Position numbers and translations under genes: made by a program. From positions 992,001-1,056,000 of the forward strand of contig JBMNIF010000002.1 in assembly GCA_050950765.1 (NCBI GenBank): a stretch of 64,000 nucleotides of DNA. The letters are read 5' to 3'. Origin of the DNA: Bdellovibrionota bacterium. Its GTDB lineage: Bacteria; Bdellovibrionota_C; UBA2361; JAAYZI01. Under the pieces are notes generated by a model. The model saw nothing but the letters and a program-made list of their open reading frames with translations, searched no databases and was not told where the DNA came from. This document shows, in pieces, positions 29,744-39,892 of the stretch (positions are counted from its first letter, which is position 1; the number at the start of each line of letters is the position of its first letter).

Positions 29744-31114
29744 ATGGTGCAGGAGTGTAGTGTAAGGAAGTATTTCGGGACGGATGGGATCCGTTGTGTG
29801 GCGGGTGTCTCTCCCCTTGATCCGGAAAGTTTAGTCCGTTTAGGACGAGCTGTTGGGGAGGTTTTCTTAAATAATCATGGGAAACGCACCGTTATTATCG
29901 GTAAAGATACCAGATTGTCGGGATATATGATTGAGAATGCTTTGGTAGCTGGTATCACTTCAGTTGGTGCTAATGTTAGGTTAACAGGGCCGTTACCAAC
30001 AGCAGGTTTATCGTATCTTACACGGAGTATGCGTTCTGATGCTGGTATAATGATTTCAGCTTCGCACAACCCTTATGAAGATAATGGGATTAAGATCTTT
30101 GCTTCTGATGGTTATAAGTTGCCTGATGAGGTGGAGTTAAAGATAGAGTCATTGATGCAGCTCGGTGCTTTGGACGGCAAGGTGGCAGATCCAGCGGATA
30201 TCGGAAAAGCCTTCCGCCTAGATGATGCTGTGGGTAGGTACACGGTCTATTTGAAAAATTGTTTTCCGAGAGAGCTCTCTTTAGATGGATTAAGGATCGG
30301 TTTGGATTGCGCCAATGGTGCTGCTTATGTTGTAGCACCCCAAGTTTTTGAGGAGTTGGGGGCTGAAGTTGTCTCTCGTGGAATAAGCCCGAACGGTCGT
30401 AATATCAACGCCGGATTTGGTAGCTTATACCCCGAAATAGTGAGAAAATTAGTTGTTGAGCAGAACTTACATCTAGGAATTTCATTAGATGGTGATGCAG
30501 ATAGGGTGATCTTTTCTGATGAAAAAGGGAATGTTCTTGATGGAGATATGATTATCGCGATCTGCGCTGTTTACCTGAAAGAGCACGGACTTCTACCAAA
30601 AAATCAGATCGTGGCAACCGTCATGTCTAACTTAGGTTTAGAGAAGTTTTTAGGACAGCACGGCATCTCCGTTATCAGGTCTCAAGTGGGGGATCGTTAT
30701 GTTTTAGAAGAGATGCGTAAGGAGCAGATCGCTCTTGGCGGAGAGCAATCTGGACACGTTATCTTTGCTGATAGCTCCACAACGGGTGACGGTATCTTAA
30801 CAGCTTTGAAGGTCTTGGAGATAATGGTTCGTAGCGGTAAAACGGTTTCAGAGTTGACAGCTGGGTATCAGAAGTTTCCGCAAAAGTTGATAAGTATAAA
30901 AGTTTCTCAAAAACCTCTCCTCTCTACACTCCCTGAGGTTTGCGAAGCGATTAAAAAAGTTGAAGATGAATTGAAAGAGGGCGGACGTGTTTTAGTTAGG
31001 TACTCGGGCACGGAGAATAAAGCGCGTGTTATGGTTGAATGTGAGAGTGAAGATCGTTGTCAAAAATATGCTGCTGATCTAGCAGAGGTGCTGGAAAAAA
31101 CTATCGGTGAATAA
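29744..31114 (+). CDS. glmM: Phosphoglucosamine mutase
   Basis: FGTDGIR, ISASHNP, DGDADR, GGEQSGH, RYSGTE. Confidence 0.96.
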   Translation: MVQECSVRKYFGTDGIRCVAGVSPLDPESLVRLGRAVGEVFLNNHGKRTVIIGKDTRLSGYMIENALVAGITSVGANVRLTGPLPTAGLSYLTRSMRSDAGIMISASHNPYEDNGIKIFASDGYKLPDEVELKIESLMQLGALDGKVADPADIGKAFRLDDAVGRYTVYLKNCFPRELSLDGLRIGLDCANGAAYVVAPQVFEELGAEVVSRGISPNGRNINAGFGSLYPEIVRKLVVEQNLHLGISLDGDADRVIFSDEKGNVLDGDMIIAICAVYLKEHGLLPKNQIVATVMSNLGLEKFLGQHGISVIRSQVGDRYVLEEMRKEQIALGGEQSGHVIFADSSTTGDGILTALKVLEIMVRSGKTVSELTAGYQKFPQKLISIKVSQKPLLSTLPEVCEAIKKVEDELKEGGRVLVRYSGTENKARVMVECESEDRCQKYAADLAEVLEKTIGE

Positions 31115-31350
31115 CAAGGATTTTTTTACCGTTATTATGATCTGCTTGAGTATATATTCGGAGAGCGGAGAGGAAAAAAGTTAGTGGTGAATAACAAGGA
31201 TTTTTTTACCGTTATTATGATCTCCTTGAGTATGTATTCAGAGAGTGGAGAGGAAAAAAGTATCGGTGAATGATGAGATAGCAAGAAATTTTTTACCGTT
31301 ATTATGATTTAGTTGGGTATGTTTTTAGAGAGGAAAAAAGTTAGTGGTGA
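31093..31350 (+). repeat. ~80 bp tandem repeat (about 3.2 units) starting in the glmM 3' end
   Basis: GGTGA anchors at 31106, 31186, 31265, 31346; TTTTTTACCGTTATTATGAT three times. Confidence 0.9.
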
Positions 31351-33446: not shown

Positions 33447-33629
33447 GGATGATATCTTTTTTTAGCTGATACAAGATACCTTGTTAAACATCTTGTTAGA
33501 TGTTGTTAAAAGAATGAGTGGCGATGGTATCGCAGTAAAACCATCCTAGGATAAACCTATTTTGGGTAGTTTTCACTCACTCATTCTTAAGAGGCTACTC
33601 GGGCAGATTCGTAGAATCATGCGGAGGGG

Positions 33630-34115
33630 TTACTCGGGCTTGCCCAGATCCCTAAAATCGCCAAAAGCGCGATTCCCGTTACCGGTAGAGGCGAAGAGCT
33701 TTTCGATAGAGGCGAGGAGCGCCTCGAGCTCTTTCGCAGGAATTCTAAGGGTCTTTACCCTTCTGATACACAACTCCTTGAAATTTGACGCGCCGTTAAG
33801 AATGGCTTTAGCCAAATATTCAAGTGACACACAATCAAGTGAGACGACGCGAGCAGGGCTATCTTGAGAATTAGAATCACTGATGGTAATCATGTTCTCA
33901 GTAGCATCAAGTTGCACCACGGCTAAGAGAATGAACCTCCCTCCATGGCGGAAATAGACTCGGATAATATCCTCGCCATCCTTACCACCCTTGTCGCAAA
34001 AGACTATGTGGGAACAGTCAGTAGGAAGCCCCATGTAATCTATTGTGTCTTGGAGTAACTCTTTCACAAACTCGGCAAACGAACCAGATGAGTTTGCCTG
34101 TCCTTCTTGTTGCAT
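33630..34115 (-). CDS. Orphan cassette protein 1 (161 aa)
   Basis: ATG with AAGGAGGAG SD supplied by spacer repeat; no recognised domain. Confidence 0.7.
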   Translation of the reverse strand: MQQEGQANSSGSFAEFVKELLQDTIDYMGLPTDCSHIVFCDKGGKDGEDIIRVYFRHGGRFILLAVVQLDATENMITISDSNSQDSPARVVSLDCVSLEYLAKAILNGASNFKELCIRRVKTLRIPAKELEALLASIEKLFASTGNGNRAFGDFRDLGKPE

Positions 34116-34375
34116 TTCTAACTCCTCCTTTATAAGGGGCTAGGATGTTGAAAGCTACCTACTTAAGTTAAGTAGCTTTTTGATATGAAAGACGCTTAAC
34201 CTGACAAGGAATCATCAGGTTATTCGTACAACGCTTGGAGCGATAAGTTGCGATAGGTCTCGCAGCAATTATCGCACCATTGTGAGGAACTGCTGGCTAG
34301 CTACTGCCACCCAGCGGCAAAACTCCTCACTTATTCATAGGAACTTACTCGGGCAGATTCGTAGAATCTACGGAG
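34116..34375. repeat. ~250 bp structured inter-cassette repeat, copy 1
   Basis: ~94% identical to 34875-35133 by manual alignment; five to six hairpins. Confidence 0.95.
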
Positions 34376-34874
34376 TTAGATAGACAGGAGCATGATATTT
34401 TTTGGGAATATCGTTCTTAACTCTGCGGAGAAGTCCATTAAACATTTTTAGATTGTCTTTTTCGTTTCGTTCTCCGTTGGGCAACCGAGCCAAAGCAAGG
34501 CATCCTGCCAAGAGATCCACCAAATTTCTAGTAAATTCCGCATCTCCATTGCTGGAAAAGATCAATTCCTCCTCCAGTGCTACCAAGCGATTCAGATTTT
34601 CCTCAGACACGCCGAAGTTCGGATCAGATTCGCGCAAGCGCTCCAAGACATTTAGAATGTCTTTTTTAGACAGGGAGAGAAACTCTTGGGTATTCAGATT
34701 TGCTTTGAACGCAGCGATCGGCTTCCCGAATTTGTGATAATAAATGATACACCCGAAGATATTTCCTCCCAGTTTCACAACCTTGATAGTGTAATTTTTC
34801 TGCGCAGGAAAGCGCGTTCTAAGCACGTTGTACAAGCTTTCGGCAAGTTTTTTAGTGTTTTCCTGATTTTCCAT
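34368..34874 (-). CDS. Orphan cassette protein 2 (168 aa), paralogue of 36909-37430
   Basis: ATG with AAGGAG SD; shares LRxRFP, VKL, GxPIAxFK, VSExxLxRL with cassette 4. Confidence 0.75.
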   Translation of the reverse strand: MENQENTKKLAESLYNVLRTRFPAQKNYTIKVVKLGGNIFGCIIYYHKFGKPIAAFKANLNTQEFLSLSKKDILNVLERLRESDPNFGVSEENLNRLVALEEELIFSSNGDAEFTRNLVDLLAGCLALARLPNGERNEKDNLKMFNGLLRRVKNDIPKKYHAPVYLTP

Positions 34875-35133
34875 TTCTAACTCCTTTATAAGGGGCTAGG
34901 ATGTTGAAAGCTACCTATTTAAGTACAAGTAGCTTTTTGATATGAAAGACGCTTAACCAGACAAGGAATAGTCAGGTTATTCGTACAACGCTTGGAGCGA
35001 TAAGTTGCGATAGAACTCGCAACAATTATCGCACCATTGTGAGGAACCGCTGGCTAGCTACTGCCACCCAGCGGCAAAACTCCTCACTTATTCTTAGGAA
35101 CTTACTCGGGCAGATTCGTAGAATCATGCGGAG
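34875..35133. repeat. ~250 bp structured inter-cassette repeat, copy 2
   Basis: Near-identical to 34116-34375. Confidence 0.95.
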
Positions 35134-35582
35134 AGACGAGGATCGTCGGAAGGAGATTTTGCACCTGCAACAAATCGTTCCAGCGCTTCCTCCATGAACG
35201 GTCTTAGAATACCTTCTAATATGCGCCGAATTTCTTCTTCTTCTTCTTCTTTCGGCTTAGTTCCGTTCAGCTCGAAAGAGACTCCCTTCCCTTCTTCGGC
35301 AGAATTGGGGTAGATCAGCTTTTTTACCCGATCCACATCAAGGGTGCCAATGGGGTAAAGCTCGCCAATAGGGTATTGCTTTTCGCCAGTGTGTTTGTTT
35401 CGGGTGGCTTCATCACCGTAGGCCCAGTAGATACAAATCCTCCAGATCCCGTTTCCTTTTTTTTCCACATAGATATAAAAGTTAAAAGAACCATCGAGAT
35501 TAAGCCTACTAGCGATGGTTTTAATAACGATTTTAATGTGGTTAATAAGGAAAAAGTGGGAACCTTGTTTGAAGATATACAT
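35124..35582 (-). CDS. Orphan cassette protein 3 (152 aa)
   Basis: Start reassigned to ATG 35582 (MYIFKQG) behind AGGAG; stop TGA lies in the conserved 3' motif. Confidence 0.65.
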   Translation of the reverse strand: MYIFKQGSHFFLINHIKIVIKTIASRLNLDGSFNFYIYVEKKGNGIWRICIYWAYGDEATRNKHTGEKQYPIGELYPIGTLDVDRVKKLIYPNSAEEGKGVSFELNGTKPKEEEEEEIRRILEGILRPFMEEALERFVAGAKSPSDDPRLSA

Positions 35583-35796
35583 TTTCTTCAAAGCTCCTGC
35601 TAAAGGAATAAAACTACTACCCAAACCGTTCTAAAAATGCTTGACGCAAAAGAGCGCAACAAGTTGCGCAAATTGCGTATTCATAACCCCGTAGGGGTTA
35701 GAATAGTGAAAACTACTCAAACCGTTTTTTCAAAGAACGCTTAGGAGATAAATCTCGACGAATCGAGATACACATCGCACACTCGTGCGACATCTT

Positions 35797-35824
35797 ATCA
35801 TAAAATAGATTCTTTTTGATCCAG
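35797..35824 (-). promoter_or_regulatory. Putative sigma70 promoter for cassettes 3-2-1
   Basis: -10 TATGAT with weak -35; homologous to the 37554-37581 promoter. Confidence 0.45.
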
Positions 35825-36193
35825 ATAGAGAAAGTTTTAGTTAAAGTGGTGCCACCCACCTGCAACGCTCCCTTTTTTATAAAGGTTAAGGGGGGAAATA
35901 ATAGCCTGCCGTGTTAGGTGGTGAAGGGTAAAAATTATATAGATTCAGCTATATTTAACTAGAAACAGCTATAAAAGAGGTTGAAAATAATGAGAAATTT
36001 TAAAAGGGTGACACCAGATTTATTTAAGAAAGTTCTTTCTTCTGTCGATGAAGATCTAAGGTAGAGAGGGAGGAGGCTTTAGGGTAATTTAAAAAATCTT
36101 TCTTCCGTATCTCCTTAAATATCGTGTGAGCGATCAAGGCTCACAGTTTTTGGCTTGGTTTTATTAGGTCATGAACCGTCGGAGTAAAATATA

Positions 36194-36574
36194 ATGAAAA
36201 TTGAATACCGTTTAGAGGCGCTGTCGGAGTGTCCGAGTCTTAGAATCTATGATTTTGATAACACGGAAGCACGACAATTACGGGAGCTTTTTATTCAGCT
36301 TGCCGAGGGGGAGAACGATTGGACCTCCCTGCATGAGATAGATAACATAGAGGCAGTTGATGGCTGCGTTGTTAATATGCGAGTTGGCGCTTGGGATAGG
36401 GGCGTTAAAAAATTTGATGAATCACATAAATTTGAATGGATCTTAACTGAAGAGTCGTGGAAAGATCTGGCAAAAATTGCAGAAGCCTTCTGCGAAGAAG
36501 ATTCTGAAGTAAATCAAGAATGGCTCGACAAAAGAGGTGAGGTCGCAGTCTTAATTGAAAGACATGAAAGATAG
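36194..36574 (+). CDS. Hypothetical acidic protein (126 aa)
   Basis: ATG with GGAG SD; globular-looking, Trp-containing; no assignable function. Confidence 0.7.
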   Translation: MKIEYRLEALSECPSLRIYDFDNTEARQLRELFIQLAEGENDWTSLHEIDNIEAVDGCVVNMRVGAWDRGVKKFDESHKFEWILTEESWKDLAKIAEAFCEEDSEVNQEWLDKRGEVAVLIERHER

Positions 36575-36908
36575 ATCGTTGACAATTTAATCGTTGACAA
36601 TTTAAAAGTTTAATACGCAGTGCAAAGAGGTACAGGGGTGGTGCGCTATCCACACTGCTACGAAATCCACCCGCCACCTAGCGGTAACCCTCCTCTTAGC
36701 TAGGAGGATTGATAGAGAGGTTGGCAGAAATAATAGAGCTGATTTTTTAAAGGTGGTTTGTTCTCCCTGATCGAGATTAGGCTCTTGTTAAATACTGTTA
36801 AAGGCGTGAGTGGGCGTTAGAGTTGCCGTGAAAATTATCACGGTTATCGCCGGAAAACCATAAAGGAATTAACCTATCAGTAGTTTCCACTCACTCACTT
36901 CAAAGAAG

Positions 36909-37430
36909 CTACTCGGGCAGATTCGTAGGATCTGCGGAGGGGTCAATTTCTTTTGGGAAAGTTACGGCATGATGTGATACCGAAGGAGGTAGTAAACCTT
37001 CTGGGGCAAACCATCTTGCCAATCTCGCCGTGGACGTTGCCAAAACGTTCCAGAGATCCAGAAGTTCTTTGTATCCATTCCAATTTTCGGGTAAGTTAAT
37101 ACATCCGTTTTGGAAAAAGAACGCTTCATTTCCCAAATCTATCAGGCGTTCCAGAGATGACTCAGAAACGTTACAATCTGGGGCATATTCAGGTAAGCGA
37201 CGCAGGAGAATTGAGATGTCTTCCCCAGTTAGAGGGAAGAGCTTTCCTTCGGGCGCTATTACCTTGAACGGAGCGATCGGCACTCCGTCCTTACGATAAA
37301 TAACAAAGGCGAACTCACCCTTCCTCAGTTTCACAATGGCGATAGCGAAAAAACTATCTGCATTGTTAGGGAAGCGTTCTCTAAGCCCTTGCTGCAAGTT
37401 ATAGTAAAGACTTGCAAGATAGGCTGCCAT
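36909..37430 (-). CDS. Orphan cassette protein 4 (173 aa), paralogue of 34368-34874
   Basis: ATG with AAGGAG SD; C-terminus 'SADPTNLPE*' is encoded by the conserved 3' motif. Confidence 0.75.
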   Translation of the reverse strand: MAAYLASLYYNLQQGLRERFPNNADSFFAIAIVKLRKGEFAFVIYRKDGVPIAPFKVIAPEGKLFPLTGEDISILLRRLPEYAPDCNVSESSLERLIDLGNEAFFFQNGCINLPENWNGYKELLDLWNVLATSTARLARWFAPEGLLPPSVSHHAVTFPKEIDPSADPTNLPE

Positions 37431-37553
37431 TTTTAACTCCTTCTACCCCGTGTAGGGGGCTAGGGTGGCGAAAACTAAAACTACATTTTTAAAGATCGGT
37501 CGGCTAATAAGCCACGATAACGCGGTAACAATTGCCGCCCACTCGCGTAGTCT

Positions 37554-37581
37554 ATCGTAAAATAAATCCATTTTGAGTCAA
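37554..37581 (-). promoter_or_regulatory. Putative sigma70 promoter for cassette 4
   Basis: TTGACT-16 bp-TACGAT on minus strand. Confidence 0.6.
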
Positions 37582-37621
37582 GCAAATCCATCCGCCACCC
37601 CTTTTTAATAAAAAAAAGAGC

Positions 37622-37784
37622 GTTTATTCCTCCGTCTTGTGAAAAGTGTAAGAGAGCACTACTAGGTCTGCAAAACGGTGTATATTCCGAAGTTTTAGGG
37701 GGTTTATTCCTCCGTCTTGAGAAAAGTGTAAGAGAGCACTACTAGGTCTGCAAAACGGTGTATATTCCGAAGTTTTAGGGGGTT
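37622..37784 (-). repeat. 80 bp tandem duplication of the 3' end of the RibD-like reductase gene
   Basis: 37622-37701 matches 37702-37781 with one mismatch (37640 vs 37720). Confidence 0.95.
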
Positions 37785-39591: not shown

Positions 39592-39892
39592 ATTTTTGAC
39601 CTCCGTATAAACCTAACCGATTCGCTCTGTTGTTGCACCCCGTCCGATCTTTCCTAAAGGGTGAGAATTTTGACCTCCGTATAAACCTAACCGATTCGCT
39701 TTTTAGTCACACCCCATCCGATCGTCCCTGAAGGGTAGAATTTTTAACCTCCGTATAAACCTAACCGATTCGCTTTTCAGTCACACCCCGTTCAATCGTC
39801 CCTGAGGGTAGAATTTTTAACCTCCGTCCAGATCTAACCGATCCGCTCTGTTGTTGCAGCCCGTCCAATCGTCCCTGAAAGGTAAAGGGTAG
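39591..39892 (+). repeat. Four tandem ~74 bp repeats (family also at 58048-58224)
   Basis: (G/A)ACCTCCGT anchors at 39598, 39672, 39746, 39819. Confidence 0.95.

Follow-up and report, generated by a model that had tools for sequence, protein, structure and literature searches.

A strain-variable array of orphan genes in a conserved, folded non-coding frame of a Bdellovibrionota genome

Results

Four framed genes between tsaE and a ribD-like gene

We have analysed a 64,000-nucleotide stretch of a Bdellovibrionota genome (the window, G000:C2:992001-1056000, where G000 is the source genome, of 2.64 Mb and 94% completeness, and C1, C2 and C3 are its contigs; bare coordinates are window positions). 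Its subject is a locus between tsaE and a ribD-like gene, in which four minus-strand open reading frames (ORFs), A, B, C and D, each sit in a frame of conserved non-coding sequence, accompanied by an unframed plus-strand ORF, E (Table 1). All four framed ORFs, here also called cargo, were found as an earlier note on this DNA had described them, with lengths of 152–173 amino acids (aa). The locus is flanked by glmM-nnr-tsaE on one side, and the ribD-like gene, a tRNA and ribosomal genes are also among its neighbours, which places it in a chromosomal setting and not in a T4-type phage region.

Public sequencing runs that hold at least half of the stretch (8 of the 24 listed) come from anaerobic digesters and bioreactors. 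An assembly artefact, either collapsed repeats or a strain chimera, would find its opening in the 250-base repeats of the locus, which exceed short reads. However, 94–95% of the words sampled from the stretch are present in each of six runs from five studies, identical A, B and D proteins occur in 4–5 contigs from NCBI and JGI sources, and the two long spacers differ at 10 positions, so that such an artefact is very improbable.

Table 1. Features of the locus, the distant unit F and further framed families (window positions unless a contig is named; SD, Shine-Dalgarno sequence; H1–H6, hairpins; P labels, public protein variants).
Feature	Position	Strand	Remarks
Terminal 3′ trailer of the C-B-A run	33505..33629	-	H1 hairpin (TAC loop), then multibranch stem; ~80% identical to D and F trailers; fold z -5.0
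ORF A, 161-aa orphan	33630..34115	-	N-terminus weakly similar to the B family (p 0.002 for A vs P0005)
Spacer 1	34116..34367	-	B trailer (H1-H3) and A leader (H4-H6; H6 folds over the SD)
ORF B, 168 aa	34368..34874	-	Model of a helix, 4 strands and helices; paralogue of D
Spacer 2	34875..35123	-	C trailer and B leader; 94% identical to spacer 1
ORF C, 152-aa orphan from ATG	35124..35582	-	166 aa from TTG at 35624
Diverged C leader (H4-H6)	35676..35787	-	~95 extra bases before the ATG at 35582
Promoter-like motif before the C leader (putative promoter)	35795..35830	-	Common to D, F and three units of the C2:625-629 kb family
ORF E, acidic, 126 aa	36194-36574	+	Between C and D; unframed; no family match
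D trailer	36795..36940	-	H1 translated in frame as the final residues of D, likewise in the relative P0005
ORF D, 173 aa	36909..37430	-	Alleles 84% (P0003) and 71% (P0004)
D leader with SD	37431..37546	-
Sigma-70-like promoter match before D	37554..37581	-	9/12, spacer 16
Unit F, 126-aa orphan	C2:194832-195650; ORF C2:195002-195439		Same leader, trailer and promoter-like motif; 830 kb from the window locus
Seven further families	C1:346.5-351.8k and 51k; C2:1157-1160.5k and 1227k; C3:77-79k; C2:535-537k		Conserved non-coding frames around ORFs that are orphan or highly diverged
Seven further families, rest	C3:567-569k; C2:569.5-571.7k; C1:34-36k		Same layout

The frame is conserved and strongly folded

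The frame returns at the nearly constant period claimed earlier, its 3′ motif family having four copies with start-to-start distances of 750, 757 and 1807 bases. The two tandem spacers, B-A and C-B, agree at 94.5% of 253 aligned columns (10 mismatches plus indels in a global alignment), close to the ~94% first estimated by hand, and both reach from a stop codon to the next ATG with the SD included. These internal spacers are alike over their full extent, while the terminal leaders and trailers are at most 80% alike. Profile and covariance searches of the genome returned exactly five leaders and five trailers, belonging to the A–D locus and to unit F; they include the diverged elements already noticed around D, and F supplies the further copy that the earlier note had proposed to look for.

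The spacers fold better on the sense strand (z -6.4 and -6.7) than on the antisense strand (z -3.8 and -4.1), and a separate fold test gave z -8.2, with 0 of 200 shuffles equally good; among a sample of 255 background upstream regions, 2% fell below z -5. The H1 hairpin stands directly behind the stop in all five units, and its loop reads on the opposite strand as a GNA triloop, which we take to be a stable type of DNA hairpin. No Rfam family matches the spacers; such a match had been named in advance as evidence against a new kind of element. There is a weak hint that leader and trailer pair with each other: the duplex z values are -5.6 for D, -5.5 for the C leader with the A trailer and -3.2 for F, alignment tests gave p 0.01-0.05 uncorrected, the best of 25 pairs was non-cognate and there was no G-U bias. 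In the three terminal trailers, 0 of 10 pairs were changed on both sides. The folded RNA may act in regulation or in stabilisation. Unit F is bracketed by arrays of a ~74-base repeat of this genome, and its H1 is a near-perfect 13-pair hairpin.

The promoter-like motif was scored with a matrix trained on its own six sites, which score 26.5-35.5 against 21.9 for the best non-training match. No sigma-70 promoter was called within either tandem spacer, and sigma-70-like matches here do not exceed those in shuffles (4 found, 7.6 expected). As the promoter-like motif stands ahead of C and the tandem spacers yielded no promoter call, genes C, B and A are probably transcribed together. A 13-base motif, picked post hoc, has eight copies in the genome, five of them in leaders of the main-locus family and of family f9 (37482-37498; C1:34747, 35820).

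Closely related strains differ in content

Four of the 24 listed public runs (labelled X9, X11, X13 and X14) were compared as contigs, and the content of the locus differs between closely related strains. The ATG of B is followed by the same foreign sequence in two of the four runs (X11 and X14), foreign sequence stands before the stop of B in X9, and a 541-nt contig of X13 links the B flanks at 34368 and 34872 across other sequence. A further ORF end in X11 and X13 carries the last 13 codons of C, and in X14 a C-like end is joined to the terminal trailer of A. One X9 contig returns from 35162 to 34888, running from a spacer end into the end of another ORF, which fits an extra tandem unit or a circle alike. 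None of the three foreign ends tested occurs in G000, while both control ends map to unit F. The body of ORF B has no cover in any of the four runs, an absence from contigs that proves nothing by itself, and the contig data may reflect either replacement of B or insertion of extra units. One and the same boundary was found in runs from different studies. The earlier idea of a constant frame around variable cargo is thus borne out, with 5′ boundaries at the ATG and with unit F framing another ORF.

The spacers themselves are mosaic. In X11 and X13 the spacer matches spacer 2 in its trailer half and spacer 1 in its leader half, and the listed differences carry the base of the other spacer in 4 of 4 cases in X13 and 4 of 5 in X11. 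A single crossover in the central identical block yields this arrangement, with B lost or gained alike; alternatively, the X11/X13 spacer may be ancestral. In X9 and X14 a different allele mix stands ahead of the same kind of slot, and the 3′ limit of homology varies, lying at the stop for B, 13 codons inside for C and its sister, and in a part read in frame for D and P0005.

These data bear on the enzyme acting in trans that the earlier note had envisaged. In a dedicated cassette system, leader and trailer would be handles by which such an enzyme (HUH/Y1, a tyrosine recombinase or a phage-borne reverse transcriptase) excises, circularises and inserts units. X11 and X14 have their 5′ boundary exactly at the ATG, and the private alleles of the window's two spacers, all but one, flank B, as if leader, B and trailer had arrived as a unit; the solitary, distant unit F would also fit. 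However, this allele pattern also follows from a single homologous crossover, other runs hold other mixes, and the 3′ boundaries vary. We found no convincing target duplication at the units, and dif-like arms appeared as 2-mismatch matches only, with no full site. The ordered cores RYYYAAC then GTTRRRY of attC sites are present in none of five trailers and spacers, which show no consistent long bottom-strand hairpin, in agreement with the earlier statement that the frame does not fit attC. No recombinase is found within 19 kb of the locus in the ORF list, and none of resolvase, TnpB or IS110 was found in G000. A search for PF00078 gave no reverse transcriptase match in this 94% complete genome, the control search being positive in 3 of 14. 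Three tyrosine recombinases and six Y1 (HUH) transposase copies do exist in G000; all lie away from the array, and the ends and the repeat family of the Y1 elements are different ones. RecA is present as well. We therefore consider a dedicated cassette system improbable.

The Y1 elements touch the frame in one respect: a short motif is common to their ends and to the sequence upstream of the C, D and F promoters, a 10-base Y1-end motif occurring upstream of the C and F promoters. The frame is not a REP (repetitive extragenic palindromic) or Y1 repeat, having 5 copies against at least about 100 Y1-end matches among those listed on one contig. Four copies of a 74-base repeat, related to the ends of the six Y1 transposase elements, lie at 39594-39888.

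Among public proteins, cargo alleles are 44–91% identical, compared with 98–99.6% for GlmM, Nnr, TsaE, RibD and the deaminase. The variants P0010 (44% to B), P0004 (71% to D) and P0003 (84% to D) appear to sit at the window locus, because their longest-contig values and sources equal those of neighbouring genes (5819 with GlmM, Nnr and TsaE; 2976 and 2798 with RibD and the deaminase). A pair of related variants, P0005 and P0011, is near-identical over ~137 residues and then diverges.

A static history would explain part of this: old duplications with purifying selection on a functional untranslated RNA, the strain differences being differential loss from an ancestral array with no ongoing exchange. 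The strong folding of the sense strand fits, and so does the spacer of the other strain, which has the best-paired stems and could be ancestral. Yet 94–98% identity over 250 non-coding bases beside proteins less than 45% identical is hard to obtain by selection alone, ORF X has unlike spacer alleles in X11 and X14, and P0005 and P0011 part abruptly; we regard such a history as unlikely.

RNA-library contigs from two libraries of two studies lie on the units only, at depths of 10–39, whereas DNA runs cover the flanks too. The two RNA runs, which were chosen for containing the stretch, gave no contig on nnr, tsaE, ORF E or the ribD-like gene. This is a hint that the units are expressed as abundant or stable transcripts, strand and level being unreadable from contigs.

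Changes in the cargo alter the protein

Substitutions were counted among the differences listed for C and D. The C allele of another strain has 21 base changes within 232 bases, and 14 of its 15 changed codons are non-synonymous; all 14 recur in P0020, which comes from an independent assembly. In D, all six listed base changes are non-synonymous, so that 20 of the 21 changed codons of C and D together alter the protein (p 0.04 against neutrality), compared with two synonymous among four flanking changes. The variation of C is confined to its N-terminal two thirds, where residues 36, 38, 40, 50 and 54 (ATG numbering) alternate along two strands of the model, which suggests that the variable residues form one binding face.

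Targeted hypermutation, by a diversity-generating retroelement (DGR) or an error-prone process aimed by the frame, would account for the contrast within a single X9 contig, where the 21 changes fall in C and none in its leader and promoter part. Clustered multi-base changes and the same contrast of ORF and flank in nine families point the same way, and the hairpin just behind a hypervariable ORF recalls DGR targets (PMC3240598), although H1, present in all five units, is not specific. In contrast to a DGR, G000 has no template repeat, as none of the ORFs occurs there in another nucleotide copy, and neither a reverse transcriptase nor an adenine-only pattern is seen: on the coding strand A is involved in 14 of the 21 changes and T in 9, with 5 of 21 at third positions. 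As silent changes are nearly absent, selection rather than a raised mutation rate is indicated, and we give hypermutation little credence.

The cargo proteins

The earlier note had seen no obvious nucleotide similarity between neighbouring ORFs. The cargo is nevertheless not all unrelated, B and D being paralogues with 40.6% identity over 106 aa (E 1e-15). When 5.8 billion proteins and 1.8 billion representatives were searched, close kin alone came back, namely P0003, P0004 and P0005 for B/D, P0020 for C and P0021 for A, and Pfam, NCBIfam, PHROG and PADLOC gave no family at cut-off for the cargo (F was left out of the Pfam scan). P0021 is a variant of A with a clean 37-residue in-frame gap on a 1-kb contig, either a real allele or an assembly error. 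A B-profile match at C1:174112 (E 0.008) was rejected because no frame is present there.

AlphaFold models of B and C both start with a long helix followed by antiparallel strands, at mean predicted local distance difference test (pLDDT) values of 60 and 66. Fold searches gave no clear match, with a best Z of 5.4 for B (root-mean-square deviation 3.5, 86 residues aligned) and 5.1 for C (5.3, 106 aligned), Foldseek returned nothing at E 0.001 for either model, and the ESM Atlas held no usable match for B or A. Because of the low pLDDT values, the fold searches show neither a new nor a known fold.

ORF A ends (33630-33665) in what looks like a decayed H1 arm, behind which comes a remnant similar to the ends of D-type genes; this suggests that A took the place of a D-like gene.

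The layout is repeated across the genome

Low-copy repeats from a self-comparison of G000 yielded 15 regions chosen by eye, of which nine were retained as seven more families and six were dropped (a toxin-antitoxin-like duplication, two transposase ends, a coding paralogue array and two repeat tracts). Counting the window locus and the three-unit locus at C2:625-629 kb, about nine families with 28 ORFs share the layout; start codons are uncertain for some of these ORFs and family f8 is borderline. The strain comparison covers the window locus. Within families, flanks are 70–98% identical over 120–350 bases where alignable, while the proteins are at most 46% identical or have no match over the body. 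Near copies of a frame are mostly 90–98% identical and distant ones 70–83%, as conversion predicts. Frames of different families have only short motifs in common, and when one leader or trailer per family was folded, seven of nine families reached z -3 or lower, compared with 5% of the background.

The 28 or so framed ORFs of about nine families of long folded RNA frames might belong to one genome-wide system, in which a trans-acting machine that is neither an integrase nor a DGR swaps and/or mutates them; this we consider unlikely.

Relatives and neighbouring features

The relatives compared are other genomes of the order, none of the same genus. Locus DNA had no match in 40 of 40 other genomes, and neither the B family nor the trailer model had one in 90 of 90. 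tsaE was present in four of five relatives searched, and the three tsaE loci that were read carry other downstream genes. Scans with the frame motifs gave no match in viral contigs or genomes and one in metagenomes, in unrelated GC-rich DNA without a frame; scans of genome and viral contigs for B-family loci gave none that was confirmed.

ORF E differs at 3 of 126 residues in two aligned variants (97.6% identity) and is preceded by a 15-base direct repeat, one copy of which is missing in two runs. The 3′ end of the ribD-like gene is tandemly duplicated over 80 bases at 37617-37776, and a similar 80-base repeat follows glmM (31084-31330).

Discussion

The locus is real, strain-variable and strongly selected, and its layout is repeated across the genome; the mechanism is most likely an ordinary one. 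We consider it probable, with some reserve, that homologous recombination between the spacers, combined with strong selection for change, has made this an arms-race locus. Strong positive selection would drive the divergence of small paralogous genes, each of which has a folded leader, with a hairpin covering the SD, ahead of it and a trailer behind. In the tandem run, the ~250-base spacer of trailer and leader would then be the only long homology remaining, so that crossovers would exchange whole ORFs. RecA-type crossovers and gene conversion between spacers, within the chromosome or with DNA of a sister strain, could delete, add or swap ORFs with their expression signals kept, while the spacers stay alike. 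The mosaic spacers, the floating 3′ boundaries, the homogenised internal spacers and the presence of RecA fit homologous recombination and not a site-specific enzyme, and RecA would be the agent. Of the capture and shuffling proposed earlier, the difference in content between strains stands, and the capture of foreign genes is not supported, at least part of the cargo being one hypervariable paralogous family. Duplication with gene conversion, which the earlier note had set against its own proposal, is not far from the reading preferred here, although order and content are variable.

Several points weigh against recombination and selection as the full account. The contig joints rest on short de Bruijn contigs with 82% likeness across repeats, and false joints are possible. 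The changes in C are adjacent or clustered and include multi-base codons. Divergence past recognition inside one species is extreme for selection alone, and recombination explains neither the strong folding of the frame nor the existence of about nine unrelated frames with one layout. No family or fold search produced a match that gives a function for any cargo ORF. Kinship beyond B and D is also faint: hhalign gave A, C and F probabilities of 0.1-3% against the B/D family, a genome-wide profile search gave no cross-matches tying A, C and F to B/D, and shuffle tests were weak, with p 0.002-0.03 in 9 of 17 cross-group pairs of eight cargo sequences. The control, ORF E, had p above 0.26 in 8 of 8 pairs, and it is plausible on these comparisons that A, C, F and B/D are one ancient family.

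As to what the cargo does, the proteins may be cytoplasmic binding proteins that track a changing antagonist, a phage or a competitor toxin, and we put this forward tentatively. That they are secreted effectors against prey or host ranks below this and seems unlikely. In a test for type III effectors (28 cargo against 1929 other ORFs), the fraction of S/T/P/N/Q/G in the N-termini was 0.35 compared with 0.30 (p 0.08), and the cargo N-termini were less hydrophobic than the background (p 5e-5). The genome has three FlhA/SctV-type export gate genes (C2:203731, C3:603845 and C1:19270), judged by eye to lie one in flagellar genes, one by Tad-like pilus genes and one by an SctJ-like gene; type III-like genes are also found at C2:261-266k and RCC1-like repeat proteins at C2:827-833k.

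PeSL cassettes of T4-type phages are conserved intergenic cassettes with stem-loops that run from a stop to an SD and ATG beside ORFans, and genes are inserted, deleted or replaced by recombination between cassettes, with chimeric cassettes left behind (Arbiol et al. 2010, PMC2839356). Here too a folded cassette with an SD reaches from stop to start next to ORFans, and content change and chimeric spacers are seen at contig level. In contrast to PeSL, the present locus is on a bacterial chromosome; its frame has ~250 bases and six hairpins compared with ~100 and one, and where each PeSL cassette holds a consensus sigma-70 promoter, none was called in the spacers and only D has its 9/12 match. 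Moreover, positive selection acts here on a cargo that in part forms a single paralogous family, and about nine unrelated frames exist side by side. As to the mini-circles of PeSL, the X9 contig joint fits a circle and an extra tandem unit equally. The esaG immunity genes (PMC9484751) and lpl genes (PMC2568036) of Staphylococcus form strings of non-identical small paralogues whose number and content are changed by homologous recombination, and in esaG the recombining conserved block includes the gene end and the downstream intergenic region (PMC9484751). Their main homology blocks, however, lie inside the ORFs and their families are recognisable. In the present locus nearly all of the nucleotide homology falls in the non-coding frame, the proteins gave no family match, and neither a cognate toxin nor a secretion locus lies next to it.

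The rAID-1 arrays of Bacteroidales (10.1101/471110) likewise consist of co-directional small genes with repeated intergenic sequence, and are expressed in metatranscriptomes, but rAID-1 needs a XerD-like recombinase at the 5′ side, and its genes are low in GC and have homologues among immunity proteins; here neither such a recombinase (ORF list, 26-45 kb) nor low-GC cargo is seen, and no immunity family matched at cut-off. Integrons and CALINs (clusters of attC sites lacking integron-integrases) share an ORF with a downstream folded repeat, a near-constant period and variable content. An attC site is a palindrome of 57–141 bases between RYYYAAC and GTTRRRY (PMC3053210); here that palindrome is missing and the repeat is a multibranched one of 250 bases that folds better on the RNA strand. 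By analogy, the locus appears to work like PeSL cassettes and esaG/lpl arrays, yet it is no member of PeSL, integrons, rAID-1 or DGRs. In the literature searched, outside which most subscription papers lie, we found no account of a chromosomal PeSL-like platform with about nine independent frame families.

What is conserved here is a non-coding frame, a folded RNA absent from Rfam, and not a gene, on a shuffling platform of the PeSL kind previously known from phages. The cargo proteins are candidate arms-race proteins of a poorly known lineage. A trans-acting system of framed diversification, if it were true, would produce orphan proteins within a single species. The locus itself points to orphan genes arising inside one species, where slots beside 99%-identical genes hold proteins that are 44–91% identical or unrecognisable.

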